In this document: one piece after another, positions 2,899 through 20,099 of the stretch
Position numbering within the stretch: the stretch's first letter is position 1
Layout: every line of letters starts with the position of its first letter
Origin: an uncultured Gemmatimonadales bacterium
GTDB lineage: Bacteria > Gemmatimonadota > Gemmatimonadetes > Longimicrobiales > Longimicrobiaceae
Assembly: GCA_963716255.1 (NCBI GenBank)
Contig: OY970303.1
Location: forward strand, 128,001-192,000
Length of the DNA stretch: 64,000 nt
Direction: 5' to 3'
Position numbers and translations under genes: made by a program
The notes under the pieces: generated by a model
Database searches by the model: none
The model's input: only the letters and a program-made list of their open reading frames with translations
Told to the model about the DNA's origin: nothing

Positions 2899-2913
2899 CG
2901 GACTGCGACCGCG

Positions 2914-3050
2914 GGTTCGGGCGTGCCCCCGGCGGGCGCCGGGGTCGGGCTTCGGCTCCGTAAGCGAGCAAACAACGCTCGCTAACGGAGTCGAGCCCCC
3001 GCGAAACTGCCCGCGCGGTCTCGCCCCTTCGGGCCGAAATCCCTCACGCG
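2914..3050 (+). repeat. ~135-bp structured repeat, copy 2
   Basis: Same consensus as 1558-1692; variable stem AGCGAGC-AAACAAC-GCTCGCT. Confidence 0.95.
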
Positions 3051-3177
3051 GGTCTCGCGCTGGCGTCCGCGGCCAGGGGGGCTCGTACCCCTGTCTCCGC
3101 CGCAGCGACATTCCCGCGTAACCTCCGCTCCAACCTCTGCCCGGAGACCTTCCGCTTTGCAAGCGGACGTGCTTCGG

Positions 3178-4610: not shown

Positions 4611-7073
4611 ATGAGCAAGAACGACGACGAAGCCGCCGCCAAGCCGCCCACCGGCTTCAAGGCCGCAGCCGCGCAGCCGGACGACGGCTTCGCGGAGTTC
4701 CTGAAGGCGTTCGCGCCCGCGCTGCGGAGCGGCCTGGACGATCCGGCGTCCGCCGACCCGGCGGGCGGCCTGCCGCCCACCGACGACGTCGCGCTGGCCA
4801 CGCATCTCTCCGAGCGGCTGTTCACCGAGGAGCTGGCGCGCCGCTTCTTTCCCCGCGAGGCCGCGGAGATCCTGGGCCCCGGCGGCGAGTGGCGCTGGTG
4901 CCTTCCCCTGGTGCGCTGCTGCTGGATGTTCGGGTGGCTGGTGTGCCGCGGCTGCCGCGACTACCAGGCGCTCAACTACTACCTGTACCGCTACTGGCTG
5001 TGCGTGCGCGCGGCCCTGGGGCGCGACCCGCGCACCCAGGTGTCCGGCCGGGAAAGGGAAGAGTTCCGCGCGCTGGCCGCGCTGCTGGGCAAAACCTACT
5101 CCGCGTGGCTCAAGGAAGAGGAGATGAAGGTGGCGCTGGACGCCGGCGCGGTGGACGACGTGCTCGCCGGCCGCACCGACTGCTGCCGCGACAACGCCTT
5201 CACCGCGGCGCTCTTCGACCGCCTGGCCACCCAGGAGGCCGCCGAGGCGCTGCTGGGGCGCGAGGCGTTCGCCCAGCACGCAAAGCACCCGTGGTTCTGG
5301 CTCTGCCGCTGCTGGTGCCGCGCCGCCATCCGCTTCGGGTGCTGCCTGGCCTGCGCGCGCTCGCACGAGGACATGCGGCGCTGCCTGGCCGAGTACCAGC
5401 GCAGCCTGGCGGACTGCGTGGGGCCGCTGCGCTGCGAGCTGACCCGCCCCACCGGGTGCTTCGAGGAGCAGCCCATCCTGGAGATCGAGGACCTGGGCGT
5501 GCCCGTCACCGGCACCGCCATGGGCGCGTTCTTCGGCGGCTACACGCTGGAATGGCGCTTCGTGGAGGGCGAGGAGTGCGGCGGGCCGAGCGGGTGGAGC
5601 TCGGTGGGGGTGGTGTACCCCGGCGGCGGGGCCGCGGGCTCCGCGCCGGTGCTCAACGGCACGCTGGGGTGGATCAAGACCCGGCTCCTCCCCGCCCGCT
5701 CGTACGAGGTGCGCGTCTGCCTGAGGACGTCCCGGCCCGGCACCGCGCCGCCGTGCTGCTGCATCATCTTCAACCTGTTCAAGCGCTTCGTGTGGATCAA
5801 CCGGGTGGGCGCCGGCTGGGTGGGCGACAGCGGCGTCTTCGACCCCGACGCGCCGCTGGTGCACCCGCCCGTCCCCGATCCCGCGTCGCACCTGGTGCCG
5901 GTGGGGTGCTGCGTCAACGTGCACGGCGCCGCCTGGGTGGGCGAGTGCAACGACCGCCGCATCCGCTGCTTCTCGCTGCGCTACGCGCCCAACTTCCTCC
6001 CCGGCTCCACTCAGCCGGGGTTCAACCCCGCGGTCTACGTCCCGCTCCCCGGCCAGCCCCCGGTGTGCTACACGCCCCCCGACGAGGCCGAGAAGCGCGC
6101 CCAGCCCAACGAGCTGACCGCCAACGACAGCATCCTGACCACGCAGTGGCAGCAGGTGACCGTCGACCTGTCCTCGTGGTTCGGGCTTCCGCCGCACACC
6201 ATCGAGCACAAGGAGTGGCACCTGCAGCCGCACTGCTTCGAATCCGGGAGCCTGCCGGCGTGCCTGGACGACGAGCACACCTGCGGCAGCGGGCGGTACA
6301 CCCTGCTGCTGGACGTGGAGGACACGCTGGGGAACCACTACTACGACACCCAGCACGTGTGGTTCGACAACAAGCGGCTGCACCTCCTGCTGGGCGGGCT
6401 GGAGGGGCTGCAGTCGTGCCAGACGCTGTCGATGAGGAGGTTCACGGGGAGCCGGCCCTGCGCGTCGCCGTGGCCGCTGCCGGTGATGGGCACCGCGTAC
6501 GACGAGTACATCATCCCCAAGGACCACAGCTACCCCAGCGACAACTTCGACTTCTACACCCTCACCATCACCCGCAACTGCGGCGGGCCCACCTACCAGG
6601 TGCCCATCACGCGCGACCTGGTGAACTTCGACAAGGACATCCTCACGGGCGCGGTGGACCCGCTCAAGGGGACGGCACACGTGGGCGTCCCCGCGCCGGT
6701 GTGCGCGTGCGACCCCAGCCTGGGGCCGGCGATGCACGGCGTGCTCACGCTGCTCGACATGCGCATCTTCGACGCCACCTGCGCGCCCCTGCTGCCGGCC
6801 CCGTTCCGTCCGCCGCCGGGGTTCGCGCTGCAGCGCGGCGAGTGCTGCGCGTACGCCATCCAGCTCTGCGGCCAGGACAAGACGGTGAACGACCTGGGCC
6901 CCGGGCAATGCCATTATGGGTGCACGCCCTGCTGCGCCATCACCGTCTGCAACGACCTGCAGCGCGAGGAGGCCGTGATCGCCGCCGGGGCGTACGACGT
7001 GGGCGACATGCTCGTGCGGGGCTCCCAGACCGCCGAGCCGGGCTCCGGCGCCGCGGCCGAGCCGGCCGGCTGA
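4611..7073 (+). CDS. Large cysteine-rich hypothetical protein (~820 aa)
   Basis: ATG 4611 with GAGG upstream; strong GC3 bias; about 45 Cys by hand count; no signal peptide evident. Confidence 0.85.
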   Translation: MSKNDDEAAAKPPTGFKAAAAQPDDGFAEFLKAFAPALRSGLDDPASADPAGGLPPTDDVALATHLSERLFTEELARRFFPREAAEILGPGGEWRWCLPLVRCCWMFGWLVCRGCRDYQALNYYLYRYWLCVRAALGRDPRTQVSGREREEFRALAALLGKTYSAWLKEEEMKVALDAGAVDDVLAGRTDCCRDNAFTAALFDRLATQEAAEALLGREAFAQHAKHPWFWLCRCWCRAAIRFGCCLACARSHEDMRRCLAEYQRSLADCVGPLRCELTRPTGCFEEQPILEIEDLGVPVTGTAMGAFFGGYTLEWRFVEGEECGGPSGWSSVGVVYPGGGAAGSAPVLNGTLGWIKTRLLPARSYEVRVCLRTSRPGTAPPCCCIIFNLFKRFVWINRVGAGWVGDSGVFDPDAPLVHPPVPDPASHLVPVGCCVNVHGAAWVGECNDRRIRCFSLRYAPNFLPGSTQPGFNPAVYVPLPGQPPVCYTPPDEAEKRAQPNELTANDSILTTQWQQVTVDLSSWFGLPPHTIEHKEWHLQPHCFESGSLPACLDDEHTCGSGRYTLLLDVEDTLGNHYYDTQHVWFDNKRLHLLLGGLEGLQSCQTLSMRRFTGSRPCASPWPLPVMGTAYDEYIIPKDHSYPSDNFDFYTLTITRNCGGPTYQVPITRDLVNFDKDILTGAVDPLKGTAHVGVPAPVCACDPSLGPAMHGVLTLLDMRIFDATCAPLLPAPFRPPPGFALQRGECCAYAIQLCGQDKTVNDLGPGQCHYGCTPCCAITVCNDLQREEAVIAAGAYDVGDMLVRGSQTAEPGSGAAAEPAG

Positions 7074-7074
7074 G

Positions 7075-7383
7075 GTGGACGCCTGGCTGCGGCTGGTGCT
7101 GGCCGTGCTCGCGTGCTGGCGGGTGACGCACCTGCTGGCGCGCGAGGACGGCCCGTGGGACGTGGTGGCCCGCCTCCGCGCCGCCCTGGGCGGCGGGATG
7201 CTGGGCCGGATGATGGACTGCTTCTACTGCCTGAGCGTATGGGTGGCGCTTCCGCTGGCCCTGTTCGTCACCCCCGCTGCGGCGGAGCGGGTGGTGGCGT
7301 GGCTCGCGGTCTCGGGCGGCGCCTGCCTGCTGGAGCGGATCGGACGCGAGCCGGTGGCGTTCACGCGGCTCGACGAACCCTGA
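7075..7383 (+). CDS. DUF1360-like small membrane protein
   Basis: LACWRVTHLLAREDGPW...CFYCLSVW pattern with a CxxC; starts 1 nt after the upstream stop. Confidence 0.75.
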   Translation: MDAWLRLVLAVLACWRVTHLLAREDGPWDVVARLRAALGGGMLGRMMDCFYCLSVWVALPLALFVTPAAAERVVAWLAVSGGACLLERIGREPVAFTRLDEP

Positions 7384-7688: not shown

Positions 7689-7709
7689 TTTGAACGGCTT
7701 TTGACGACG

Positions 7710-7848
7710 GATTCGGGCGTGCCCCCGGCTGGCGCCGGGGTCGGGCTTCGGCTCCGTAAGGCAGCAAACAACGCTGCCTAACGGAGTCGAGCCCCGGCGC
7801 AAACAGCCCCGCCGGGTCTCGCCCCTTCGGGCCGAAATCCCTCACGCG
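7710..7848 (+). repeat. ~135-bp structured repeat, copy 3
   Basis: Consensus match; variable stem AGGCAGC-AAACAAC-GCTGCCT. Confidence 0.95.
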
Positions 7849-7927
7849 GGGATCACGCTGACGCCCGCAGATCCGGCGGGCGAACGGCGCCGGCCCCGCC
7901 ATCACGGATGCACCTGGCGTCTGGCAA

Positions 7928-8246
7928 CTACCCCGCCGCCCCCACCAGCGCGTCCAGCCGCTTCGCCGAGAACCCGGCCGTCGCGCGGTCCCCTGCGACC
8001 ACCACGGGCCGCGTGATGAAGGTGTACTCCTCCTCCATCAGCCGCAGCATCTCGTCCTCGGACACCTCGTGCTCGTGCAGCCCCATGGCGCGGTACTTCA
8101 TGGCGCGCCGCGAGAACAGCTTGTCGGGCCCGCCGACGAAGTCCGCCAGCCGCCGCACTTCGTCGGCCGGGAGGCGGTCGGTCTTGAGCGGTCGACGGCC
8201 ACGCCCCTGCCCTCCAGGTACGCGACGGCCTTCTGGCAGGGGGTGC
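7928..8246 (-). pseudogene. Truncated, frameshifted duplicate of ArsC/Spx-family gene (left island boundary)
   Basis: 7947-8246 is near-identical to 18229-18538, but lacks the 5' end and has a 10-bp deletion (GTCGTGGAAG). Confidence 0.9.
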
Positions 8247-8618
8247 GCTCTGCATTTCCGCGTAACCACGGCATGATCTACATCCATCTCGCCACCTGAA
8301 CCGACCCCGGCCCACCAAGATTACGTCTGGTGGGCTTACGCATATGCCGACAATCCGTCGTGTGGACTGCCGATGCGTCGACGCGAACCATCCCACCAGC
8401 GCGCTCACCACTTCGCCGAAGAAAGCCAGTGGGAATCCGGGAGACCGTGGCCGACAGAACTAACGTGCCATGAGAACCCGCCGTCCATCACGGTGCGCGA
8501 GGGTTCGCCTGAACACACCTCATACACAATGCCGAAAGCGGGGAGCGCGCTTGGCCGGCCGTGACCGCGCGGAACACAGGCGGATTGCCCCGGCTATCGC
8601 GCAGAGAACCGCTACGCC

Positions 8619-9389
8619 ATGCATCGGGATGACACGATGACAAACCAGATCAAGGTCCTCTTGCTGGCTGCCAACCCGGACAATACTACCAAACTGCACC
8701 TAGACGAGGAGGCAAGAGCCATCGCTGAAGCCATTCAATACGGGCGCGATCGCGATTCGCTCGATTTCGAGACGGCGTGGGCGGTGCGAGCCAGCGACCT
8801 GCAGCGGGTAATCCTGCACCACGAGCCCCAGATCCTGCACTTCAGCGGGCACGGCAGCAAGTCGCCGGGACTCATGATGGGAGGCGAGAACGGCGACACG
8901 CTCCCCGTCAGCGGAGAGGCGATCGCCGCCATTGTGAAGGCGGCGGCGCCCCGCATCCGGATGGTGGTCCTGAATGCCTGCCTGTCGCTCCACGTCACCC
9001 GCCGCTTCCGGAACGCCGTCGACTACACGATCGGCATGAACCAGCCGATCAGCGACCCCTCAGCGATCTGGTTCTCAGCGGCTTTCTACGGTGCGCTCGC
9101 GGCCGGTACCACGGTGGAGAAGGCATTCGAGTGGGGCATCGCCCGCCTGCTCACCCAGGGATCGAGCGAGGCCGGGGTACCCAGGCTGCTCAAGCGCAGG
9201 GGCCTTCGGACCCCGGCGGCGCTGCTTCCCGCGCCCGTACCCGAGCCAATACCCGAACCCGGACCCGCGCCCGAGCGCCTTTCGGCGCCCGCGCCGCACT
9301 ACGGCCCGAGGATCACCGCGAACGAAGTCGGAGACGTCATAACCCTCAACGGCGACAACGCCACCGTCAACACATCCCGCAAGCGATAA
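8619..9389 (+). CDS. CHAT domain (caspase-like) protease with C-terminal putative amyloid-type motif
   Basis: KVLLLAANP...LHLDEEARAI start; catalytic His in ILHFSGHG and Cys in VVLNAC; Pro-rich linker; tail ITANEVGDVITLNGDNATVN. Confidence 0.9.
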   Translation: MHRDDTMTNQIKVLLLAANPDNTTKLHLDEEARAIAEAIQYGRDRDSLDFETAWAVRASDLQRVILHHEPQILHFSGHGSKSPGLMMGGENGDTLPVSGEAIAAIVKAAAPRIRMVVLNACLSLHVTRRFRNAVDYTIGMNQPISDPSAIWFSAAFYGALAAGTTVEKAFEWGIARLLTQGSSEAGVPRLLKRRGLRTPAALLPAPVPEPIPEPGPAPERLSAPAPHYGPRITANEVGDVITLNGDNATVNTSRKR

Positions 9390-9421
9390 CCCGGAGCCCG
9401 ACCACTCAGGGAGCGGAGATC

Positions 9422-12037
9422 ATGGAGTGTCCCCGTTGCAGCATGCCAATCCCAGAAGGCGAGAATTGTCCGGTGTGCTCACTGGAGGTGCAGCCCCCCG
9501 GCGTAGAGCCACAGGCCGAGCAATGGCAGGACTCCGTTGATGAGGTCGAAGCAGCGGCAAATGCCGCCACAGCGGCCGAAGCAGCTGCGACAGCGGCCAC
9601 CGGGACGACCGCGACGACCGACGGCACGGCGTACTCGCCTTCCGACGTGGCACCGGAAGAGAGCAAGTCTGGCCCCGGCGATGTGAACGAGAATGATCCA
9701 CCGCCCGTTCCGGGATCCACCGAGATCGATGCGAACGAAGTCGGCGACGTCATCACGGTCAATGGCAACCGCGCGGCGTTCGTCGGCGCGGTGAACAATT
9801 ACAATTACTACGGCGCCACATCCGAAGTGGAAGAGGAGACGGTCGCGGCGCTGCTGGAGAAGACCACGGAGTTCGAGCTGGACAGCCTCCCCTGGGCGGC
9901 GCTGGACGCGGAGGAGGTCGCCCGCCATGCACGCGTGCTCGCGGAGGAAGGGCTCCTGCTCGTCAGCTGCGTGGACCGCTCGCTGGCCCGCGCCGCCGTT
10001 CAGGCCGTGGTCGCCGCGCTGGAGCTGGAGCCCGCGCGTGTGCGGCTCCTCGGCTTCGGCCGGTTGGGGACCGACCAGGCGTCGCTCACAATTCACGACC
10101 TGCTGAAGTGGAAAGTCGACACGGACACCCGGACGATCGTGGTGGCCGACGCCGACAGCGTGCACGCGCAGCCGTTCCTCGACTCCCTCCTGGGCAGGGA
10201 TGGCGCCTTCCTGGCCACCTACGTCCGCCGTTCGCTGGCCCAGCGCAAGCTCCGGCTGGTCTGCCTGGCCGAGCCCTCGCGGTACGCCGCGCTGACCCGC
10301 GCGGGCGAAGAGTCCGGGTTCACCCACTGGACGGTCCCGTTCCTGGAGCCGTTTCTACGGCGCGAGTTCGCCGGCGACCACGAGGCGCTGCACTCCGCGA
10401 TCCTGCGGCAACGGGACGAGGGGCGGTGGAGCCGCGACGACGCGGAGCTGTGGCACCAGGTCCGGACTTTCTGGGGCCAGGGGCGCCTGCGCGAGGTGGT
10501 GGTTGACGGCGGCATCCGCGTGCAGCCGATGGTGGTGGACGAGCAGCGACCCATGCACCAGATCGTGCTGTTCACGGCCGCGTTCTTCACGGCACTCAGC
10601 TCCACGGACTTCGATCGGGTGGTCACCGCCCTGCTGGGAGACGCCACCATCCCTATGGCCGTCCCGACGGCGCCGGGCGCGAGCGAGACCGCCGCCCCCG
10701 CCGCGCACCGCGACAAGCCGCTCGCTCAGCTGTGGCGCGAGTGTGCCGACCGCATCAGGGACGAGTGCGGGCTGGTGGTGATGCGCGACCCCGCCGCCCG
10801 CCAGGTCGTGGAGTTTCGGGAGCCCGGGGCCCGCGACGCGCTTCGGCGGCGACTGGAAGAGGAATACCCGTTCCACCTGCACACCACCTTCGACCGGCTG
10901 CACGGCACCGGCCTCCTGTTCGCCGGCTCCGACGCCGTGGCGGCCAACGTGGTCCGCGTCACCGCGCACATGGCGGAGGGCCACCCCGAGACCTACGGCC
11001 GGGACTGGGTGGTGGGGATGCTGGTGGTGAGCCGCGTCCGCACGGCGGACACCCTCCCGCTGCACCACGTGATGCGGCGGTTCGGGGAGCTGCTCCGCGA
11101 GCTCTCCGCGCGCCCGGCGGTGCGCCCCCTGGTGGAACAGGTGCTGAACTGGCTGCTGGGGGTGCCCGACTTCCATGCCACCGTGTTTGCGCTGGCCGGG
11201 CAGCTCCGGTTCGCGCCCGAGTTCGACGTGCTCCGCTGGCTGCGCCAGCTCATCGACCGTGGTGATGCGAACGCTCGCGCGGCGGCCTTCACCTTCCTGT
11301 ATCGGGAGCTCCTCGCCGTCGGCGGGCAGGTGTACCCCACCCTGCACACCCTGGCGGACTGGCTCCCGCCCGAGGACGCCAGGACCGGCCGATACTCGCT
11401 CTCCCAGCGGTACGCCTTGCGCCTGCTGGTGGAGTACGCCGCGACCACCGCCGCCCGCTTCGACCCGGAGTGCTACGGCGAGCGGCCCGTCCGATACCCC
11501 CTGCTGGCCGTGGGCGCAGAGACCGGTCGGCGCGACCTGGGACTGCTCGTCCGCTGGCTCCTGCACCCCGGGATCTCCGAGGCCGTCCGTGACGGCATCG
11601 CCCGGCGGGGAATCCCGCGCCTGGTGGCGGCGCTGGTGGCGGAGTGGACGTTCATTCTGTTCGGCCCCCACGAGATCCCCACCCCGCCCCGCCCCGACAC
11701 CGCCCGGCCGGGCGCACCGGTCGCCCTCTCCGAAGCCGCGGAACCGGGGGATGCGCAGCCTAGGGCCGACGGGGACGACGGGGCGGCGTCTCCCGAATAC
11801 GTCTTCGAGGTCCTGCTGGAAGAGCTCACGGCGCGAACCCGGACTCGCGAGGGCCGCGAGGCCGGCCGGGAGATGCTGTCCTACTGGCAGGAGATGACCC
11901 GGCTGCACCTCCCGTCTCCGAAGACGAGCCGCGCGGCGCGCAAAGAGCTGGAGTGGAAGCGGGGCCTGTTCCGCGCCCTTCTCCTCCGGTACCGCGCCCT
12001 GCAGACCGCTCCGGCCCCATCGGCCCCCACCCCGTGA
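9422..12037 (+). CDS. Zn-ribbon + shared motif + degenerate STAND-like NTPase + helical-repeat protein (871 aa)
   Basis: ATG 9422 after GGAG. CPRC...CPVC, acidic/Ala linker, then IDANEVGDVITVNGN. LLLVSC strand without GKT and IVVAD Walker-B-like strand; amphipathic helical C-terminal half. The domain call is inference. Confidence 0.75.
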   Translation: MECPRCSMPIPEGENCPVCSLEVQPPGVEPQAEQWQDSVDEVEAAANAATAAEAAATAATGTTATTDGTAYSPSDVAPEESKSGPGDVNENDPPPVPGSTEIDANEVGDVITVNGNRAAFVGAVNNYNYYGATSEVEEETVAALLEKTTEFELDSLPWAALDAEEVARHARVLAEEGLLLVSCVDRSLARAAVQAVVAALELEPARVRLLGFGRLGTDQASLTIHDLLKWKVDTDTRTIVVADADSVHAQPFLDSLLGRDGAFLATYVRRSLAQRKLRLVCLAEPSRYAALTRAGEESGFTHWTVPFLEPFLRREFAGDHEALHSAILRQRDEGRWSRDDAELWHQVRTFWGQGRLREVVVDGGIRVQPMVVDEQRPMHQIVLFTAAFFTALSSTDFDRVVTALLGDATIPMAVPTAPGASETAAPAAHRDKPLAQLWRECADRIRDECGLVVMRDPAARQVVEFREPGARDALRRRLEEEYPFHLHTTFDRLHGTGLLFAGSDAVAANVVRVTAHMAEGHPETYGRDWVVGMLVVSRVRTADTLPLHHVMRRFGELLRELSARPAVRPLVEQVLNWLLGVPDFHATVFALAGQLRFAPEFDVLRWLRQLIDRGDANARAAAFTFLYRELLAVGGQVYPTLHTLADWLPPEDARTGRYSLSQRYALRLLVEYAATTAARFDPECYGERPVRYPLLAVGAETGRRDLGLLVRWLLHPGISEAVRDGIARRGIPRLVAALVAEWTFILFGPHEIPTPPRPDTARPGAPVALSEAAEPGDAQPRADGDDGAASPEYVFEVLLEELTARTRTREGREAGREMLSYWQEMTRLHLPSPKTSRAARKELEWKRGLFRALLLRYRALQTAPAPSAPTP

Positions 12038-12052
12038 ACACACGAGGCTGAC

Positions 12053-15000
12053 ATGGCACAGACGTACCCTCTGGATCGGGTGATCCGCAAGGTCCCGCCG
12101 GGCGGCGCCACGGCGGACGCGCAGCGGATCGTGACCGTGCTCGTCGGAGAGCGGACGGTGGTGCCTCGCAGGCCGTTCCCGTGGAGTGACGTGCAGTACT
12201 TCCTCGTCTCCCACCACGGCGACCCCACCCACCAGTGCCGGGTGGAGATCCCGGCCGTCGCCCTGGCGGACCTGGACGAGCAGGTGGAAGTGTCCGTGAA
12301 CCTGCTGGTCAACTGCCCGCCGGGTGACGAGGCGCGGGTGACCCTGGCGCTGTTCGACCCGGTGGACGCCCCGCACGCGATGCTGGAGCGGCACGTGGTC
12401 CGCTGCCTCCGCGACCTGGGCCAGGCCGACGTGGGCGCGTTCACGCGGCGATTCTTCGCCGATCCGGCTGCCGTCCAGCAGGACCTCGCCGAGGCGCTAG
12501 CGCGCGGTACGGGGCTGCGCGTCCACGCCCGGCTCTCGCTGGACCAGGGTCCCGACCGCGACGTGGTGCGCGTGGAGGTGGCCCACCTCGCCGTCCTGGC
12601 CGCCGACTGGGACGAGGAGCAGGACCTGGCGATCCGGGTCGACCTCGAGGTGGACGACGCTGGCTTGGCCGACGCCGTCCTGAGCCGGGCGCGGATGCCG
12701 GAGCTGAACGTCATCGTGCCCCGGGAGATCCGCGCCTTCGTGCGGCGGCGGATCTCGCTCGCGGAGCTCCCGAGGATCGGCGCCGGGGCGGCCAGGCAGG
12801 CGCTGGTGAGCCACCTCGACGACGTGCTGCGCCCGCTCGGACGGCGCGTGGGCGCCCTGGTGCTGCAGCCCGCGAACGTGCAGGGAGCTCCCCCGGACCA
12901 GCTTGCCGTCCTGGAAGTGGTGGACGTGCCCTGCACCGTGCGGGAGTATCCCAGGCCCGTCACGATCGCGAACCGGGTGCTCCTGCGGGTGGTGGACCTG
13001 GTGAGGTATCGCGGCGAGGCGTCGCCCGAGCTGCGCACGTGGCTGCGCGATACGCTGAACCGGCTGGTCCCGGAGACCCTGTTCGAGGCGCGCTACACGG
13101 ACCTGCTGCTGCGATTCGATCGCTGGGAGGAGCGGATCAAGCAGGCCGTACGCGCGGCGGCGGAGGGAATCGGGTGCGAGATCAGCCAGTTCATCACCGA
13201 TCCCGACCTCCCCGAGAAGATTCTCGTCAAGCCGTTCGTCATCCGCACCGAGGGGGCCTTCGAGACCCGGCTGCACGGCGTGGACGCGAAGCTGGAGGTG
13301 GTGGTCACGGCGCGCATCCCCCGCCTGGAAGACATCGCCTCGCTCCTCGCCCGGGAGCCCGACATCCCCCGCGCCATGGAAGAAGCCGTCCGCACCGCCC
13401 TGGAGGCGCGGATGCACGCGCTGCACCCCGAGCGCTTCTACATGCGGTTCGGCTTCGCCGACCCGGTGCGCCACGCCGAGGAGACGCAGTCGGTGGAAGC
13501 GGAGCTGATGGAGCACGTGGAACGCCGGCTCACGGAGGGCGAGTTCCACGCCGAGGTCGTCGGAACCGTCATCAAGATCGTGGAAACGGACCTCATCCGC
13601 CGCTTCCGCGAGCTGCAGGAGGCTACCCCCGACTTCGTCCTGCGCGTGGAGTCGCTCGACGCGGAGGTGGTGGATTTCGCCGCCAACCTCCGGGTGGGAG
13701 CCGTGCACTACGACGGCTGGCAGCGGTTCCGCGTCCTGACCGGCGGAATCGAGCAGATCACCGCTAGGGTGCGGGACCAGGTGGACACCGTGCTCCACAC
13801 CCTCCCCGCCGCGGAGCTGCTCTATCAGGGCGAGGCGGAGCGGAGCGCGCTGGAGGCCCGGGTGTCCGCGGCCGTACTGCAGTACGCCGCCGAGCAGTTC
13901 GGCCTCGTGGTGCACCTGGCCAATTTCCGCCGCACCCGCACGGAGAGCGAAACCGCGTACCACGCCACCCTGCGCGGCGAGTGGCAGCGCGAGGCAGAGG
14001 CCCGCGCGCGGCTCCAGGAAACCGCCGTCGGCGCCAGGCTCAACGAGTACGCTGGCATGGCCGCGGCCATTGAGCGGCTGACGGAGCGGTGCACTGAGCT
14101 GTACGGGGTGGAGGGTGAAGAGAAGGAGCTGGCGCGGGTGGAGCGCGAGATCGCCGCGCTCTCGTCGCGCCTGCGCGAACACTCCCGGCTCCCGCTGGAC
14201 GCGGGTCCAGACCGCGACGTGGTGCGGGTGGAGATGGCCCACCTTGCCGTCTTCGCCTCCGACTGGGACGAGGAGCAGGGCCTGGCGATCCGGATCGACC
14301 TCGAGTTGGGCGACACCGGACGGGCCGACGTCGTCCTGAGCCGCGCGCGGCTGCCGGACCTGCACGCCATCGTGCCCCGGGAGATCCGCGCCTTCGTGCG
14401 GCGGCAAATCTCGCTCGCGGAGTTCCCCAAGATCGGAGCGGGGGAGGCCAGGCAGGCGCTGGTGAGCCACCTGGACGAAGTGCTGCGCCCCCTCGGACGG
14501 CGCGTGGGCGCCCTTGTGCTGCAGCCCGGGAACGTGCTGGCGGCGCCTCAAGACCAGCCGTCCGTCCTGGAAGTGGTGGACGTGCCCTGCACCGTGCGGG
14601 AGTATCCCAGGCCCGTCACGATCGCGAACCGGGTGCTCCTGCGGGTGGTGGACCTCGTGAAGTATCGCGGCGAGGCGTCGCCCGAGCTGCGCACGTGGCT
14701 GCGCGATACGCTGAACCGGCTGGTCCCGGAGACCCTGTTCGATGCGTGCTACACGGACCTGCTGCTGCGATTCGATCGCTGGGAGGAGCGGATCAAGCAG
14801 GCCGTTCACGCCGCGGCGGAGAGAATCGGGTGCGAGATCAGCCAGTTCATCACCGATCCCGACCTCCCCGAGAAGATTCTCGTCAAGCCGTTCGTCATCC
14901 GCACCGAGGGGGCCTTCGAGACCCGGCTGCACGGCGTGGAGGCGAAGCTGGAGGTGGTGGTCACGGCGCGCATCCCCCGCCTGGAAGACATCGCCTCGCT

Positions 15001-15982
15001 CCTCGCCCGGGAGCCCGACATCCCTCGCGCCATGGAAGTGGCCGTCCGCACCGCGATCGAGGTGGGGATGCACACGCTGCACCCCGAGCGCTTCTACATT
15101 CGGTTCGGCTTTGCCGACCCGCTGCGCCACGCCGAGGAGACGCAGTCGGTGGAAGCGGAGCTGATGGAGCTCGTGGAACGCCGGCTCACGGAGGGCGAGT
15201 TCCACGCCGAGGTCGTCGGCACCGTCATCAAGATCGTGGAACCGGACCTCATCCGCGGCTTCCGCGAGCTGCAGGAGGCTACCCCCGACTTCGTCCTGCG
15301 CGTGGAGTCGCTCGACGCGGAGGTGGTGGATTTCGCCGCCAGCCTCCGGGTGGTGGCCGTGCACAACGACGGCTGGCAGCGGTTCCGCGTCCTGACCGGC
15401 GGTATCGAGCAGATCACCGCCAATGTGCGGGACCAGGTGGACACCGTGCTCCACACCCTCCCCGCGGCGGAACTGCTCTACCAGGGCGAGGCGGAGCGGA
15501 GCGCGCTGGAGGCCCGGGTGTCCACGGCCGTGCTGCAGTACGCCACCGAGCAGTTCGGCCTCGTGGTGCGGCTGTCCAATTTCCGCCGCACTCGCACGGA
15601 GAGCGAAACCGCGTACCACGCCACCCTGCGCGGCGAGTGGCAGCGCGAGGTGAAGACCCACGCACGACTCCAGGAAGCCGCCGCTGGCGCCCGGCTCAAC
15701 GAGTACGTCGGCATGGCCGCGGCCATCGAGCGGCTGACGGAGCGGCGCACCGAACTGTACGGAGTGGAGGGCGAGGAGGAGGAACTGGAGCGGGTGGAGC
15801 GCGACATCGCCGCGCTCGAGTCGCGCATGGGAACGGTGCCCGCTGCCTCCGCCGCGCAACTGCGCAGGCGGGCCAGCGGGACGGCCGCGGTGGACCGGGC
15901 GTTCCCCGCCGGGGCGGCCGTGGACGCGGTGGATCTAGTGTACGAAGGCGAGCCGGAGGCCGCGCCGACGGTCGAGTCATGA
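12053..15982 (+). CDS. Giant protein with tandem SPFH/Band-7-like modules and coiled coils (1309 aa)
   Basis: Repeated beta-beta/helix/helix/G-x-x-V units, e.g. VTIANRVLLRVVD...IKQAVRAAAEGIGCEISQF; internal 552-aa duplication. Confidence 0.75.
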   Translation: MAQTYPLDRVIRKVPPGGATADAQRIVTVLVGERTVVPRRPFPWSDVQYFLVSHHGDPTHQCRVEIPAVALADLDEQVEVSVNLLVNCPPGDEARVTLALFDPVDAPHAMLERHVVRCLRDLGQADVGAFTRRFFADPAAVQQDLAEALARGTGLRVHARLSLDQGPDRDVVRVEVAHLAVLAADWDEEQDLAIRVDLEVDDAGLADAVLSRARMPELNVIVPREIRAFVRRRISLAELPRIGAGAARQALVSHLDDVLRPLGRRVGALVLQPANVQGAPPDQLAVLEVVDVPCTVREYPRPVTIANRVLLRVVDLVRYRGEASPELRTWLRDTLNRLVPETLFEARYTDLLLRFDRWEERIKQAVRAAAEGIGCEISQFITDPDLPEKILVKPFVIRTEGAFETRLHGVDAKLEVVVTARIPRLEDIASLLAREPDIPRAMEEAVRTALEARMHALHPERFYMRFGFADPVRHAEETQSVEAELMEHVERRLTEGEFHAEVVGTVIKIVETDLIRRFRELQEATPDFVLRVESLDAEVVDFAANLRVGAVHYDGWQRFRVLTGGIEQITARVRDQVDTVLHTLPAAELLYQGEAERSALEARVSAAVLQYAAEQFGLVVHLANFRRTRTESETAYHATLRGEWQREAEARARLQETAVGARLNEYAGMAAAIERLTERCTELYGVEGEEKELARVEREIAALSSRLREHSRLPLDAGPDRDVVRVEMAHLAVFASDWDEEQGLAIRIDLELGDTGRADVVLSRARLPDLHAIVPREIRAFVRRQISLAEFPKIGAGEARQALVSHLDEVLRPLGRRVGALVLQPGNVLAAPQDQPSVLEVVDVPCTVREYPRPVTIANRVLLRVVDLVKYRGEASPELRTWLRDTLNRLVPETLFDACYTDLLLRFDRWEERIKQAVHAAAERIGCEISQFITDPDLPEKILVKPFVIRTEGAFETRLHGVEAKLEVVVTARIPRLEDIASLLAREPDIPRAMEVAVRTAIEVGMHTLHPERFYIRFGFADPLRHAEETQSVEAELMELVERRLTEGEFHAEVVGTVIKIVEPDLIRGFRELQEATPDFVLRVESLDAEVVDFAASLRVVAVHNDGWQRFRVLTGGIEQITANVRDQVDTVLHTLPAAELLYQGEAERSALEARVSTAVLQYATEQFGLVVRLSNFRRTRTESETAYHATLRGEWQREVKTHARLQEAAAGARLNEYVGMAAAIERLTERRTELYGVEGEEEELERVERDIAALESRMGTVPAASAAQLRRRASGTAAVDRAFPAGAAVDAVDLVYEGEPEAAPTVES
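12537..15826 (+). repeat. In-frame tandem duplication, period 1656 bp
   Basis: GACGTGCCCTGCACC occurs at 12923 and 14579. Shadow ORFs with identical starts begin at 13039 and 14695. The copies differ by scattered substitutions. Confidence 0.95.
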
Positions 15983-17481
15983 GCACGCGCGCGCTCGCCG
16001 ACCCGGGCGTTCGCCGCCGGGTCGCCGGCACCGACCCCGCGCGGTGGGCGCTGCAGCCGGAGTTCTGGCGAGGCCAGCCGGCGCTCCTCGTCACCCTGGG
16101 AGGAAGCCTGCTCGGGATCATCCTCCTGGCCCCGTTCACCTACAGCGGCGCCACCTCCATTCTGTCGCTGCTCGTGCAGGCGCTCGCGGTGTGGGGAGTC
16201 GTGATCGCGGCGCGCGGGCTAGCCGCGGCAGACGTGGACCTGGCCCTGATCCACGAGCTGGACGAGCGCAGCTCCGGCTACCTAGCCGGGCTGGCGGCCC
16301 AGGGCGAGAGCCGAATGGACTTGGACAGGCTGGAGCGTACCCTGGTTCCCAACAACCCGGCGGCCCCCGTGCCCGGCCCCATCCGCATCTTCCAGCAGGT
16401 CTGCAAGGAAGCGCGGGACCGCCGGTTCGAGTCGGCGAGCACACTGGTGCAGCCGTATCGGGACGAGGCCACGGAAGACCTCTTCCGCCTGCAGAACCTG
16501 CAGAAGATCGCGCTCTGGATGGGCATCCTGGGCACCTTCGTGGGACTGCTGATCGCCCTGCGGGAAAGCGGCGGGACCGTGGTGAGCGACGGCGCGCTCA
16601 CCGCGCTGGTGGAGGAGATGTACGGCGGCCTCTTCGTATCGTTCACGGCCAGCGTCGCCGGCCTGGAGGTGGCGATCATCCTGAGCTTCGTCCTGCTGCT
16701 GCTGCGCAAGCGCCAGGAGCTGTGCTTCGCCCGGATGGAGAGCGTGGCCGTGACGTTGCTGTCGGCCGCGCGGCACGCCATCAACCACGACGACTTCATC
16801 CACGAGTTCGCGCAGGTGAACACCACCGTCCGCGACCTCGCCAACCGGGTCCACGAGCAGACCCGGGGCATCGTCGACCGGCTGAACGGGGTGGAGTCGC
16901 GACTGTGGGATCAGAACGAGCGGATCGACGCCGGGCTAGAGCGGCTGGCCGGAGCGCGGAGCGAGTTCGAGCGCTTCCTGCAGAACGTGAGCGACGCCGA
17001 ACACCAGTTCCTCGGCGAGCTGGCCAGGCTCTTCGAGGCCGCGTCGTTCCGGGACCTGGCCCAGACCCTCCATGATGGCACACGCGAGGTGGGGGATCGA
17101 CTGACCGGGCGGCTGGACGACATGACGTCACGCAACGCCGCGCAGCTGGAGGCGTTCGACGCGTCCGTGCAAGCACTCACGGCCGCCGTGCAGGCCCAAT
17201 CGGCCGGGTTCGCGGCCAGTGTGGACCGCCTGGAGAGGGAGGTCACCGCGACCTCCGCGCGCAACGCCGAGGCGGTCCTGGCCGCATGTGCACGGTTAGC
17301 GTCGGTGGCAGAGCGGCTCCAGGGCGGCCCGAGATCGAGCGCGGCCGTGCTGGAACTGCTCGCGTCTCGTCTGGCGGAGCTGGACCGCACGCTCCGCCGG
17401 CAGACGTCGCCCAGGCTGCGCAACCTCCTGGTCTCCATCGTCCCCAGCGGGTGGAGGAACGGCGCCGGCAGCCACCGGTGA
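15979..17481 (+). CDS. ZorA/MotA/TolQ/ExbB-like proton-channel subunit with long coiled-coil tail
   Basis: ATG 15979 overlaps the upstream TGA (ATGA). Two N-terminal TMs; channel helices ALWMGILGTFVGLLIAL and GGLFVSFTASVAGLEVAIIL; about 250-aa helical tail. Confidence 0.85.
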   Translation: MSTRALADPGVRRRVAGTDPARWALQPEFWRGQPALLVTLGGSLLGIILLAPFTYSGATSILSLLVQALAVWGVVIAARGLAAADVDLALIHELDERSSGYLAGLAAQGESRMDLDRLERTLVPNNPAAPVPGPIRIFQQVCKEARDRRFESASTLVQPYRDEATEDLFRLQNLQKIALWMGILGTFVGLLIALRESGGTVVSDGALTALVEEMYGGLFVSFTASVAGLEVAIILSFVLLLLRKRQELCFARMESVAVTLLSAARHAINHDDFIHEFAQVNTTVRDLANRVHEQTRGIVDRLNGVESRLWDQNERIDAGLERLAGARSEFERFLQNVSDAEHQFLGELARLFEAASFRDLAQTLHDGTREVGDRLTGRLDDMTSRNAAQLEAFDASVQALTAAVQAQSAGFAASVDRLEREVTATSARNAEAVLAACARLASVAERLQGGPRSSAAVLELLASRLAELDRTLRRQTSPRLRNLLVSIVPSGWRNGAGSHR

Positions 17482-17511
17482 GGCGCCGACCCACCAAAGT
17501 GGAAGGGTACC

Positions 17512-18183
17512 ATGCGATCCTCGCTCCACCTGAACGACGACACCAACCAGTTCGGTCCCGGCTCCGACCTGATGATCTCACTGGCCGCCGTGCTGCTGAT
17601 GCTGACGGTGATCGTCTCGCACCTGTATGGACGAGAGCGGCTGCGGGCGGAGGAAGACAGGGCGAAGTACGAGACCTTGCGAACGGACTACGTGCGGGAC
17701 AGCACGCGCTTCGAGGAGCAGAGGGCGAGGTTTGCGCGGGATGTCGCCGCGGGGGGCTCGTTCCGCGTGGCAACGGCGTCCGTCCCCGCCGCCGATTTCC
17801 ATCCCTACCCCGTCACCCGGCTGGTCAGGCCCGAGCAGACGGAGCTGCGCGTGCAGCAGATCGTGGCGGAGTACCGGCGGCAGGACTACCCGTACATCTT
17901 CGTGATCGGCCACTCCAGCGCCACCGACGATCCCGCGGCCGCGGATCGCAGCCACCGCGCGCGGCTCCAGCGGAACTGGGAGTACGCGGGGCGCCGTGCC
18001 GCGCTCGTCGCCGCGCTTGTCGAGCCGCACCTAACGGAGGCGGAGCGCGGCGGGCTCGTGGTGATGACCATGGGCGAGCTCGACATGCGCGATCCCGCCA
18101 ACCCGCTGTCACAGGAGAATGCATGGGTCGAGGTCGTCTTCGGAAAGGAGTGGAAGCCCCCGTCGCGGGCTGCCGGGAGGTGA
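17512..18183 (+). CDS. ZorB/MotB-like subunit with OmpA-like peptidoglycan-binding domain
   Basis: Single TM with conserved Asp (SDLMISLAAVLLML), then IFVIGHS, NWEYAGRRAALV, MGE...P and VEVVF motifs. Confidence 0.82.
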   Translation: MRSSLHLNDDTNQFGPGSDLMISLAAVLLMLTVIVSHLYGRERLRAEEDRAKYETLRTDYVRDSTRFEEQRARFARDVAAGGSFRVATASVPAADFHPYPVTRLVRPEQTELRVQQIVAEYRRQDYPYIFVIGHSSATDDPAAADRSHRARLQRNWEYAGRRAALVAALVEPHLTEAERGGLVVMTMGELDMRDPANPLSQENAWVEVVFGKEWKPPSRAAGR

Positions 18184-18212
18184 CCCGGTCACGGGGCCGG
18201 GGAAGCTCCGGC

Positions 18213-18569
18213 TCACCTCCCGGCCAGGAGCGCGTCCAGCCGCTTCGTGGAGAACCCGGCCGTCGCGCGGTCCCCTGCGACCACCACGGGCCGCGTGATG
18301 AAGGTGTACTCCTCCTCCATCAGCCGCAGCATCTCGTCCTCGGACACTTCGCGCTCGTGCAGCCCCATGGCGCGGTACTTCATGGCGCGCCGCGAGAACA
18401 GCTTGTCGGGCCCGCCGACGAGGTCCGCCAGCCGCCGCACCTCGTCGGCCGGGAGGCGGTCGGTCTTGAGGTCGTGGAAGCGGTCGACGGCCACGCCCCT
18501 GCCCTCCAGGTATGCGACGGCCTTCTGGCAGGTGGTGCAGTACGGCAGCCCGTAGACGGTTACGCCCAT
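18213..18569 (-). CDS. ArsC/Spx/MgsR family thioredoxin-fold protein (intact copy)
   Basis: MGVTVYGLPYCTTCQKA (CxxC) and FITRPVV...GFS motifs. Confidence 0.9.
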   Translation of the reverse strand: MGVTVYGLPYCTTCQKAVAYLEGRGVAVDRFHDLKTDRLPADEVRRLADLVGGPDKLFSRRAMKYRAMGLHEREVSEDEMLRLMEEEYTFITRPVVVAGDRATAGFSTKRLDALLAGR

Positions 18570-18639
18570 TGTGTCATCCAGAGGTGAGTGTGTGTGTAGT
18601 TGACGTTCGCCGTTCCGCAGTACCCCCATGGTCCGTTGC

Positions 18640-18757
18640 GGAGGGAGACTCGCCGGCTGTTTGGCGAGGCTCCCTCCGGCGCAGGGAGACCCGGAGGCAG
18701 TTTTCCGGGGCTCCCGGAGCCCGCGTAGGAAACAGGCCGGCAGTTTGGCCTGGTTCC
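18640..18757. repeat. Three tandem REP-like hairpins
   Basis: GGAG-, GCAG- and GTAG-led imperfect hairpins with loops GGCTGTTT or GGCAGTTT (reverse complement AAACWGCC), the same loop as hairpin 2 of the 135-bp repeat. Confidence 0.75.
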
Positions 18758-18845
18758 GGAGCGGCCCCGGCGCGCCCAAAGCAGAAGGCCGCCCCAAACA
18801 ATAGAGCGGCCCCCGATCTTCCAGGTACGAGCTCGCGACAAAAAA

Positions 18846-20099
18846 CTACGCCGCCGAGTGCGCCGTCGCCTGGAACTCCGCGCACAGCGCGTGCACCTCG
18901 TCGTCCGAAAACGTGTGGTCGCAGCGCTTTGCCGCCTCGAACACGTGGCTGCTGAGCCGGTCGTCCGACACGTCGTACCCGTGCTGCACCAGCCAGTAGC
19001 GCACGTTGCTGATGCCGCTCATGTGCGACACCTCGATGCGCTGCCGCAGCCCGAACAGCCCCGCCGGCACCCCCGAGTACACCCGGTCCGCCAGCCAGGC
19101 GTCGCCCTTGGACTCGGCCTTGATGATGGCGGCGGCGTGCACCCCCGTGGCCGTGCGGAAGGCGTCCGACCCGAAGACGGGCCAGTTGTACGGCAGCGGC
19201 ACCTGGCAGGCCTCCGCCACCAGCTCCACGTACTCGCCCAGGCGCGACAGGTCGGGGGCGTGCAGCCCCATCAGCTTGAGGTTCACCAGCAGCAGGTCCA
19301 TCTCGGTGTTGCCGCAGCGCTCGCCCACGCCCAGGCCGGTCGCGTGAACGCGGTGCGCGCCCTCGTCGATGGCGGCCAGCGTGTTGGGGATGGCGAGGCC
19401 GCGGTCCCGGTGCCCGTGCCAGTCGATCTTCACGTCCTCGCCGCTGGGCTCCACGATCTCCTCGCGGACGAAGCGCACCAGCCGGCGCACCCCCTGGGGC
19501 GTGGCGTGGCCCACCGTGTCCGCCAGGCACAGGCGGCGCGCGCCGCAGCGGATGGCCGTGCCGTACAGCGCCCGGAGCGTCTCGGGGTCGGCGCGGGTCG
19601 TGTCCTCGGTGACGTACATCACCGGCAGCCCCTCGCGCACCGCGAAGCTCACCGCCTCCTCGGTCGCGCGGAGCATGCGGTCCAGCGTCCAGTCCTCGGC
19701 GTACTGGCGGATGGGCGAGGAGCCGATGAAGGTGGCCACCTCGATGGGGATCCCCACCCGCTGCGACACCTCCACGATGGGGCGCACGTCGGCGATCACC
19801 GTGCGCGCGGCGCAGTTGGCGGAGATGGGGAGGCGGGCTTCGGCGATCTCGCGCGCCAGCACCTCCACGTCCTGCACGGCGCGCGGGCCGGCGCCCGGGA
19901 GCCCGATGTCCGCCGCCTGGATCCCCAGCCCAGCCATGAGGTGGAGGAGCTGTACCTTGTCCTCGATGCGGGGATCGGTGACGGACGGGGACTGGAGCCC
20001 GTCGCGCAGCGTCTCGTCGTCCAGCTCGACCGTGCGGATACTCGTGGAGTCCTGGCCCGGTGCGGTGTTCCAATCGAAGATCAGGTCGCGCTCGAGCAT
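18846..20099 (-). CDS. LeuA/homocitrate synthase family (DRE-TIM) protein without regulatory domain
   Basis: Motifs DETLRDGLQ, LADTVG, HGHRDRG and GVGERCGN; ATG 20099 after GAGG. Confidence 0.88.
   Translation of the reverse strand: MLERDLIFDWNTAPGQDSTSIRTVELDDETLRDGLQSPSVTDPRIEDKVQLLHLMAGLGIQAADIGLPGAGPRAVQDVEVLAREIAEARLPISANCAARTVIADVRPIVEVSQRVGIPIEVATFIGSSPIRQYAEDWTLDRMLRATEEAVSFAVREGLPVMYVTEDTTRADPETLRALYGTAIRCGARRLCLADTVGHATPQGVRRLVRFVREEIVEPSGEDVKIDWHGHRDRGLAIPNTLAAIDEGAHRVHATGLGVGERCGNTEMDLLLVNLKLMGLHAPDLSRLGEYVELVAEACQVPLPYNWPVFGSDAFRTATGVHAAAIIKAESKGDAWLADRVYSGVPAGLFGLRQRIEVSHMSGISNVRYWLVQHGYDVSDDRLSSHVFEAAKRCDHTFSDDEVHALCAEFQATAHSAA

Follow-up and report, generated by a model that had tools for sequence, protein, structure and literature searches.

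Why does the C-terminal tail of a caspase-like protease recur, almost residue for residue, inside the protein encoded by the next gene? The question arises in a 64,000-nucleotide stretch of DNA from an uncultured Gemmatimonadales bacterium (contig OY970303.1 of assembly GCA_963716255.1, positions 128,001 to 192,000 of the forward strand; hereafter the window, whose own numbering is used throughout), in which the gene for a stand-alone CHAT protease is followed by a gene for a STAND-fold protein. An initial annotation, made from the letters of the window, had proposed that the shared segment is an amyloid-signalling-like motif through which the two proteins polymerize and the protease is activated. 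Judged by sequence comparison across related loci, the motif pair is real, conserved and co-evolving. It stands at the head of a conserved five-gene operon, a setting that the initial annotation had missed, in the order CHAT, STAND-fold, tandem-SPFH, ZorA/MotA-like and ZorB/MotB-like (Table 1).

Table 1. The operon, its two motif copies and its borders, in window positions.
Feature	Positions	Strand	Basis or remark
Left direct repeat, marking the island's left border: 5'-truncated ArsC/Spx-like gene copy with 10-bp deletion	7928..8246	-	Repeat search
Stand-alone CHAT (caspase-HetF) protease, 256 aa	8619-9389	+	Pfam PF12770 E=2.3e-9, 37.6 bits against a cut-off of 24
Effector-side motif ITANEVGDVITLNGDNATVN	9312-9371	+	aa 232-251 of the 256-aa CHAT protein
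STAND-fold protein without Walker A, 871 aa	9422-12037	+	AlphaFold2 model, Foldseek, VIA
Sensor-side motif IDANEVGDVITVNGNRAAFVGAVNNYNYY	9725-9811	+	aa 102-130 of the 871-aa STAND-fold protein
Tandem-SPFH (Band 7) protein with coiled coil, 1309 aa	12053-15982	+	PF01145 E=2e-8
ZorA/MotA-like membrane protein with coiled-coil C-terminal tail, 500 aa	15979-17481	+	PADLOC ZorA models E 5e-7
ZorB/MotB-like protein of 223 aa, comprising a membrane helix (N-terminal, bearing the conserved Asp) and an OmpA-like domain	17512-18183	+	Weak profile matches
Intact ArsC/Spx-like gene	18213-18569	-	TIGR01617 E=3.5e-17, below cut-off

The motif shared by the CHAT and STAND proteins

As first noted, the two segments have nine contiguous identical residues in common, ANEVGDVIT, and they agree at 13 of their first 17 aligned positions. 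The nonamer is confined to 2 of the 82,479 six-frame open reading frames (ORFs) of the 8.42-Mb genome, both at this gene pair. BLASTP of the motif-sharing pair gave E=8e-5, none of 300 shuffles of the tail reached the motif score of 66, and of the genome's adjacent gene pairs (an approximate set of 4,525), 6 have a tail that shares at least nine identical residues with the gene that follows. Between the CHAT and STAND families as wholes, the motif is the sole profile match (weak, probability 13%). The copies contain an exact DNA match of 14 nt; synonymous codons differ at 5 of the 13 identical residues (gga/ggc, ata/atc, acc/acg, aac/aat, gcc/gcg), and the same codon is used at the other 8, where genome codon bias alone predicts 7.8. 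There is thus no sign of a recent DNA copy, and it is the protein that has been kept, in agreement with the protein-level selection that the initial annotation had proposed. Pro-rich or disordered linkers precede both copies, as it had also stated (model pLDDT, the predicted local distance difference test, below 50 for aa 26-114). Its placement of the motif held for the effector, in which the protease domain is followed by a Pro-rich linker and then the C-terminal motif, and failed for the partner, in which the copy is not N-terminal: about 100 residues, with a CxxC-CxxC zinc ribbon and then a disordered linker, come before it, and the NTPase-fold core follows directly.

Whether the copies co-vary from locus to locus, a check set beforehand, was examined in a set built from an alignment of 42 ZorA-like proteins, which led to 45 loci (numbered with L), 30 of them from metagenomes and 15 from genomes, the latter all titled Acidobacteriota. 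Dropped before the statistics were L028, L045, L072, L073 and L074 (near-duplicates of L005, L035, L071, L012 and L009, respectively), L014, with its STAND gene in pieces, L064, in which a fused TIR leaves no pair, L070, where the contig ends, and loci whose contig ends before the effector. Across 21 loci, the mean cognate score was 44.4 versus 27.6 (0 of 100,000 permutations), and 11 of the 21 cognate pairs scored above all 300 tail shuffles and 13 above 99% of them. With fixed windows in 24 loci, cognate pairs scored 39.6 and non-cognate pairs 23.3, whereas control windows in the effector domain and the upstream linker were nearly flat (17.8 versus 16.6 and 20.0 versus 18.3). Because related loci are not independent, the clustered p values are the ones to trust: with one draw per cluster, 13 clusters (45% core identity cut) gave p=0.0005 in 200 of 200 draws, and 5 clusters (36% cut) gave a median p of 0.0095. 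The cognate partner ranked first in about 7 of the 13 clusters. The excess was repeated in 7 new loci from a STAND-profile search (33.6 versus 22.4; 2 of 5040 permutations), which brought further motif types (VNNRDVRQQYN with VNNGDVRNQYN; QQQFVAS with QQQFIAS).

The paired sequences themselves illustrate the pattern. The effector segment KGSKVGQVNRVNGDGAMII is found with QHSTVGQITAVQGNDAII in the STAND protein of L016, GDNNKNIGKVEI with GDRNKNIGKVEI in L042 and VEGSGNIIAQHYNVY with VHGTENIIAQVYNAY in the TIR loci; the L019 group has a VGDGN-type motif in both partners. A STAND-core tree (quick tree, support 100) places L042 and the L019 group as sisters; the two differ in effector type and each has its own matched motif (scores of 71 and 50 versus 20 and 21). 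Tandem motif copies, two or three, occur in the STAND proteins L016:4942-7686, P0054 and P0082; of the copies in L016, one is of an L018-like type and one matches the CHAT of L016 itself.

The composition of the motif resembles that of bacterial amyloid signalling sequences (BASS), which are described as rich in N, G, V and I (and Q) and poor in P and L (and K) (10.1101/2020.01.06.895854; this and the other sources are cited for their accessible parts). Among 123 representatives, a 20-residue window at least half composed of N, Q, G, V or I was found in 79 of 123 motif zones, compared with 7 of 50 windows in the linker and 12 of 123 in the core. The N fraction of the motif zone was 0.095 versus 0.039 and 0.032, with I, V and G raised, P and L lowered, Q barely raised and K not depleted. 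The BASS-like make-up suggested at the outset is therefore present, N/G/V/I-rich and P/L-poor. The suggested kinship with RHIM and HET-s motifs was not borne out: 38 motif windows gave no such Pfam match and the core signature is absent. RHIM membership was rejected on the motif core, G-D-V-I-T in place of the central G-hydrophobic-Q-hydrophobic-G of the RHIM / BASS3 / PP signature (10.1101/2020.01.06.895854).

The operon, its variants and its surroundings

The partner protein consists of a zinc ribbon (aa 3-19), a disordered linker, the motif, an AAA+/STAND-like domain (aa ~140-366), a winged-helix-like region and a helical C-terminal part. In its AlphaFold2 model (pLDDT 77.7), the best Foldseek matches of the core were SAMD9, Avs5, Avs3, CED-4 and NOD2 (E 2e-5 to 9e-4, with low whole-chain TM-scores), and VIA gave Z 8-9.7 for aa 140-366 against AAA+/STAND nucleotide-binding domains. 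The motif has a pLDDT near or below 50 in this monomer model, which is uninformative on amyloid. A Walker A signature, GxxxxGK[ST], was found in 0 of 138 core matches, and the protein is therefore read, on its predicted fold, as an inactive STAND. Pfam and NCBIfam had no match for the window protein, NB-ARC and NACHT included, and Pfam returned nothing informative, iSTAND included, for 28 members of a family of 569 representatives at 50% identity (E up to 0.001). The initial annotation had expected an adjacent NLR; the STAND-like fold is what remains of that identity, as a canonical NLR was rejected on the missing Walker A, the unmatched NB-ARC/NACHT and the internal position of the motif. A single-sequence search of genome contigs with the STAND protein gave no match, a word-based homology search found 3 proteins, and a PDB sequence search with the STAND, SPFH or ZorB-like profiles gave no match. 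The N-terminal slot is filled by EAD8 in P0157 (E=5e-21) and by a fused TIR_2 in P0178 and L064, in all of which the motif is absent.

On the effector side, the CHAT dyad is intact, with His74 (8838-8840) and Cys121 (8979-8981) invariant in 13 aligned homologues; a second ATG at 8637 may be used as an alternative start. An adjacent effector was present in 25 of 25 examined loci that reach far enough upstream (near-duplicate L045 left out), comprising 14 short CHAT, 5 long CHAT, 3 opposite-strand long CHAT, 2 TIR and 1 unannotated protein. The effector varies between loci, with two CHAT types, TIR and C14 caspase, and the TIR effectors of L021 and L025 also bear a matched motif; no Bell effector was seen in the loci examined. 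The opposite-strand CHAT genes (L015:3539-4729, L035:3775-4899 and L038:3653-4774) are arranged head to head with that of the STAND protein; their N/G/I-rich tails resemble the partner segment by eye, with low scores. The unannotated gene in the effector slot (L043:765-1376, 204 aa) has a matched-looking tail and no Pfam or NCBIfam match. In three related loci, a second CHAT protein, with the domain at its C-terminus, is encoded after the ZorB-like gene (L005:10863-13103, L006:12071-14320 and L033:12069-14327), split into two ORFs in L006. Downstream in both of the operon types described here (L065:1941-4657, L070:1727-4452 and L071:11430-13955) are a gene for a C14 caspase, whose start resembles a signal peptide, and an unannotated neighbour.

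Downstream of the STAND gene, 1656 bp of the SPFH gene are duplicated in tandem and in frame (12515-14170 and 14171-15826, 92.8% identical), which accounts for a protein of 1309 aa where relatives have about 720-830 codons. AlphaFold2 modelled its aa 1-713 with a pLDDT of 88.9; three successive units matched prohibitin (Z 12.5), stomatin (Z 11.9) and FliL (Z 9.2), and the secondary-structure pattern suggests five units in all. The ZorA-like family profile matched the PDB chains 8vvn_C (E=5e-4) and 8qyd_A (ZorA; E=2.6e-3), whereas the NCBIfam ZorA score was 21.4 bits against a cut-off of 100 for the window protein and 18.9 against 190 for that of L016. Among 33 ZorB-like homologues, weak matches to Pfam OmpA were found in 22 and to PADLOC ZorB1 in 9; the Asp is nearly invariant, and Gly-His, Asn and Arg-Ala are invariant. 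The ZorB-like protein falls in the Atlas OmpA cluster (0.92). ZorC/D, ZorE and type III partners were not detected in a PADLOC scan of the five operon genes, and none of the curated defence models passed its own cut-off. Canonical Zorya was rejected, with ZorA and ZorB under curated cut-offs and nuclease-type partners undetected. Where a ZorA-like locus extends far enough upstream, the STAND gene is nearly always there (33 of 34, the exception being L010). The ZorB-like gene was present in 43 of 45 loci, the remaining two ending first.

The STAND gene also has a second operon setting (L064:3663-8303, L067:2256-7280, L068:1750-6483, L069:3441-7988, L065:5508-6656 and L070:5264-6415 (minus strand)). 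A DO-GTPase2 gene (PF19993) follows it in L064, L067 and L068, and all six of these loci have in common a further conserved, unannotated gene that starts with a YDNRT motif, with no Pfam or NCBIfam match in those scanned and no GAP1 match. SPFH and ZorAB-like genes were unmatched in the DNA read around the DO-GTPase2-type loci. The STAND-DO-GTPase2 operon is possibly a new variant of DO-GTPase systems.

The window operon lies between direct repeats (7947-8246 and 18229-18538; 310 bp, 94.2% identical) that have only these two copies in the genome, the right one being the 3' part of the intact ArsC/Spx-like gene. GC content at third codon positions (GC3) is 0.82-0.92 on the ~10-kb block versus 0.97 in two host genes, and operon homologues were found in 0 of 60 relatives, 0 of 400 phylum-sampled and 0 of 300 class-sampled genomes of the host. 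The flanking repeats, the lower GC3 and the absence from relatives and sampled kin make it likely that the block is a horizontally acquired island. Among its five genes no integrase was seen, and no sigma-70 promoter or intrinsic terminator was called in 7700-18900. Just left of the island are a gene for an 820-aa Cys-rich protein (4611-7073, plus strand) with no Pfam match and then a DUF1360 gene (7075-7383). An intergenic repeat of ~160 bp, possibly a REP-like or MITE-like element, occurs at 1557-1715, 2912-3070 and 7708-7868, and the genome has ~807 matches of at least 120 bp.

How the shared motif may work

Protein-level homotypic coupling of the CHAT and STAND proteins is highly probable. 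Given coupling, analogy makes its amyloid form fairly likely; a defence role for the operon is, by a little, the safer assumption of the two. We lean, again by analogy, towards the shared peptide being a BASS-type homotypic coupling motif that would activate the protease through an amyloid-style stack. In such a scheme, phage breach of the envelope would be sensed by the ZorAB-like motor, and the tandem SPFH, as a scaffold, would relay the signal to the STAND protein, which would cluster so that its motif copies nucleate a cross-beta stack. The matching CHAT tail would join the stack, bringing protease domains together and switching them on, with abortive cell death or arrest as the outcome. 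Activation by proximity and the amyloid state are modelled on BASS and Bab/Agp. The motor as upstream sensor falls slightly short of an even call, and the envelope-sensing trigger is the most speculative step. Taken whole, the scheme would be a new Zorya-like immune system, a membrane-sensing inflammasome in which motor and tandem SPFH act through an inactive STAND hub and an amyloid polymer on interchangeable effectors (CHAT, C14 caspase or TIR), with a hub portable to DO-GTPase2 systems; we put this forward tentatively, as somewhat more doubtful than its sensor step.

Several observations weigh against this scheme. About one third of the motif pairs are unmatched by score; 8 of the 21 did not exceed 99% of their tail shuffles (L003, L006, L013, L031, L033, L036, L040 and L043), the new loci L071 and L075 were unmatched at ranks 29 and 19 of 31, the three divergent-CHAT loci scored 16-21, and hand-picked, overlapping locus contrasts were clean in only 6 of 12. 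None of the 38 motif windows matched a known amyloid-motif family in Pfam, and no gene for a protease substrate was identified in the operon. As the STAND protein is without Walker A, an ATP-driven switch of the kind found in NLRs is unlikely. ZorA and ZorB matches all lie under curated cut-offs. The STAND gene and a motif-paired CHAT also head the DO-GTPase2-type operons L065, L067, L068 and L069, and L071/L072 have SPFH with ZorAB-like genes unmatched in ~5 kb downstream. The motor is therefore not an obligatory partner, and the DO-GTPase2-type loci mark the effector-motif-STAND unit as a portable hub with two partners or more, the motor among them.

The main rival, itself unlikely, is that the motifs couple through a small stoichiometric contact, a beta-strand or beta-helix pairing in the manner of EAD or death domains, without self-propagating amyloid. 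All of the co-variation results fit such a contact, EAD8 can occupy the motif slot, and beta-helical proteins share a BASS-like composition (10.1101/2020.01.06.895854). In-register stacking, however, requires near-identical segments of 15-25 residues in a disordered context, as seen here, and BASS pairs of the same arrangement and make-up gave fibrils when tested (10.1101/2020.01.06.895854, 10.1101/2024.11.07.622273).

It is improbable that the coupling is real and the operon serves envelope-stress or developmental signalling, with SPFH and a MotAB-like stator as a stress or motor-scaffold system. The FliL-like unit would suit this role, since stators are reportedly scaffolded by FliL, and the curated defence models all stay under cut-off. 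SPFH proteins are also found in envelope-stress operons (PMC11237479). The swapping of effectors among CHAT, C14 caspase and TIR speaks against such a role, as do the patchy distribution, the repeat-flanked island of lower GC3 and the identity of the closest membrane-domain match, which is ZorA.

Very improbable, in turn, is a model in which the STAND-side motif is a cleavage or recognition site of the protease and the CHAT tail a pseudo-substrate that keeps it off. The model is favoured by the intact protease dyad of the effector and by an Asp of the motif in an exposed linker, but the matched motifs on the non-protease TIR effectors weaken the model, and the motif varies widely between loci with no common scissile residue. 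Neutral local duplication or gene conversion of a few codons between neighbours, for which the 14-nt match and the tandem duplication in the SPFH gene might speak, has next to no chance, because codon identity is at background and the linker controls are flat, which rules out a recent DNA duplication of the motif, and matched pairs of different sequence recur in many lineages.

Relation to known systems

Coupling on this principle is already known: a screen of Bell C-termini and NB-ARC/NACHT N-termini reported BASS motifs together with CHAT and TIR2 (10.1101/2020.01.06.895854), and Bab/Agp (BASS11) uses amyloid templating in phage defence with a non-NLR sensor (10.1101/2024.11.07.622273). What appears undescribed is the family of the sensor, the internal placing of its motif and the association with SPFH/ZorAB-like (or DO-GTPase2) genes; the named BASS families were compared by description, and the motif could belong to one already named. 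No published description of the operon was found in the literature searched, a coverage outside which subscription papers mostly fall, and no SPFH/MotA operon of this kind was found in the text passages or supplements searched of PMC7159879 and PMC8195603.

The iSTAND/iSTAND2 MoxR-vWA and DO-GTPase ternary systems of those two sources likewise have an inactive STAND as third component with an N-terminal EAD, TIR or caspase and EAD-type coupling to a neighbouring effector, and some of the STAND relatives found here adjoin DO-GTPase2. In contrast, no MoxR or vWA was found among the five operon genes, no Pfam iSTAND match in 28 aligned members, and GAP1 was unmatched in the conserved downstream protein of the DO-GTPase2 variant. 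Zorya types I-III (PMC11890865) encode, along with soluble effectors, a MotA-like protein whose tail is cytoplasmic and then a MotB-like protein that has a membrane Asp and an OmpA-like domain, an arrangement that the predicted membrane pair of the operon, with its conserved Asp and weakly matched OmpA-like domain, resembles; the proteins described here fall far under the ZorA/ZorB cut-offs, have no detected nuclease or helicase partner and are joined instead by a tandem SPFH, an inactive STAND and a protease or TIR. If the proposed scheme is true, one operon would unite two immune ideas that have been studied separately, amyloid signalling and the sensing of the envelope by ZorAB motors.

Bab/Agp (10.1101/2024.11.07.622273) is alike in coupling a non-NLR sensor and an effector by a shared motif of ~20 residues, and BASS11 is also found with TIR and CHAT. 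Its sensor is a TPR-GreA/B-PIN protein and its effector a Bell membrane protein, and amyloid and defence were demonstrated there, whereas both are proposed here. The locus would offer a natural test of amyloid stacking that activates a caspase-like protease or TIR and not a membrane-damaging Bell/HeLo effector. Closest in layout are the BASS1-10 pairs (10.1101/2020.01.06.895854), in which a short N/G/V/I-rich motif is shared by the effector C-terminus and the N-terminal region of an adjacent, mostly collinear STAND-fold gene, with CHAT and TIR among the effectors and all-in-one fusions known. Their partner is an NB-ARC/NACHT protein with TPR/WD repeats, whereas here it is an unannotated STAND-fold family without Walker A, the motif lies ~100 residues in behind a zinc ribbon, the examined loci have no Bell effector, and the setting is a five-gene membrane-motor operon with Acidobacteriota as named hosts. 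This suggests that BASS screens built on Bell domains and NB-ARC/NACHT N-termini would miss internal motifs of inactive STAND proteins. The present family, which is without a Pfam or NCBIfam model, supplies dozens of natural matched and mismatched motif pairs with which to ask how the specificity of amyloids is encoded.

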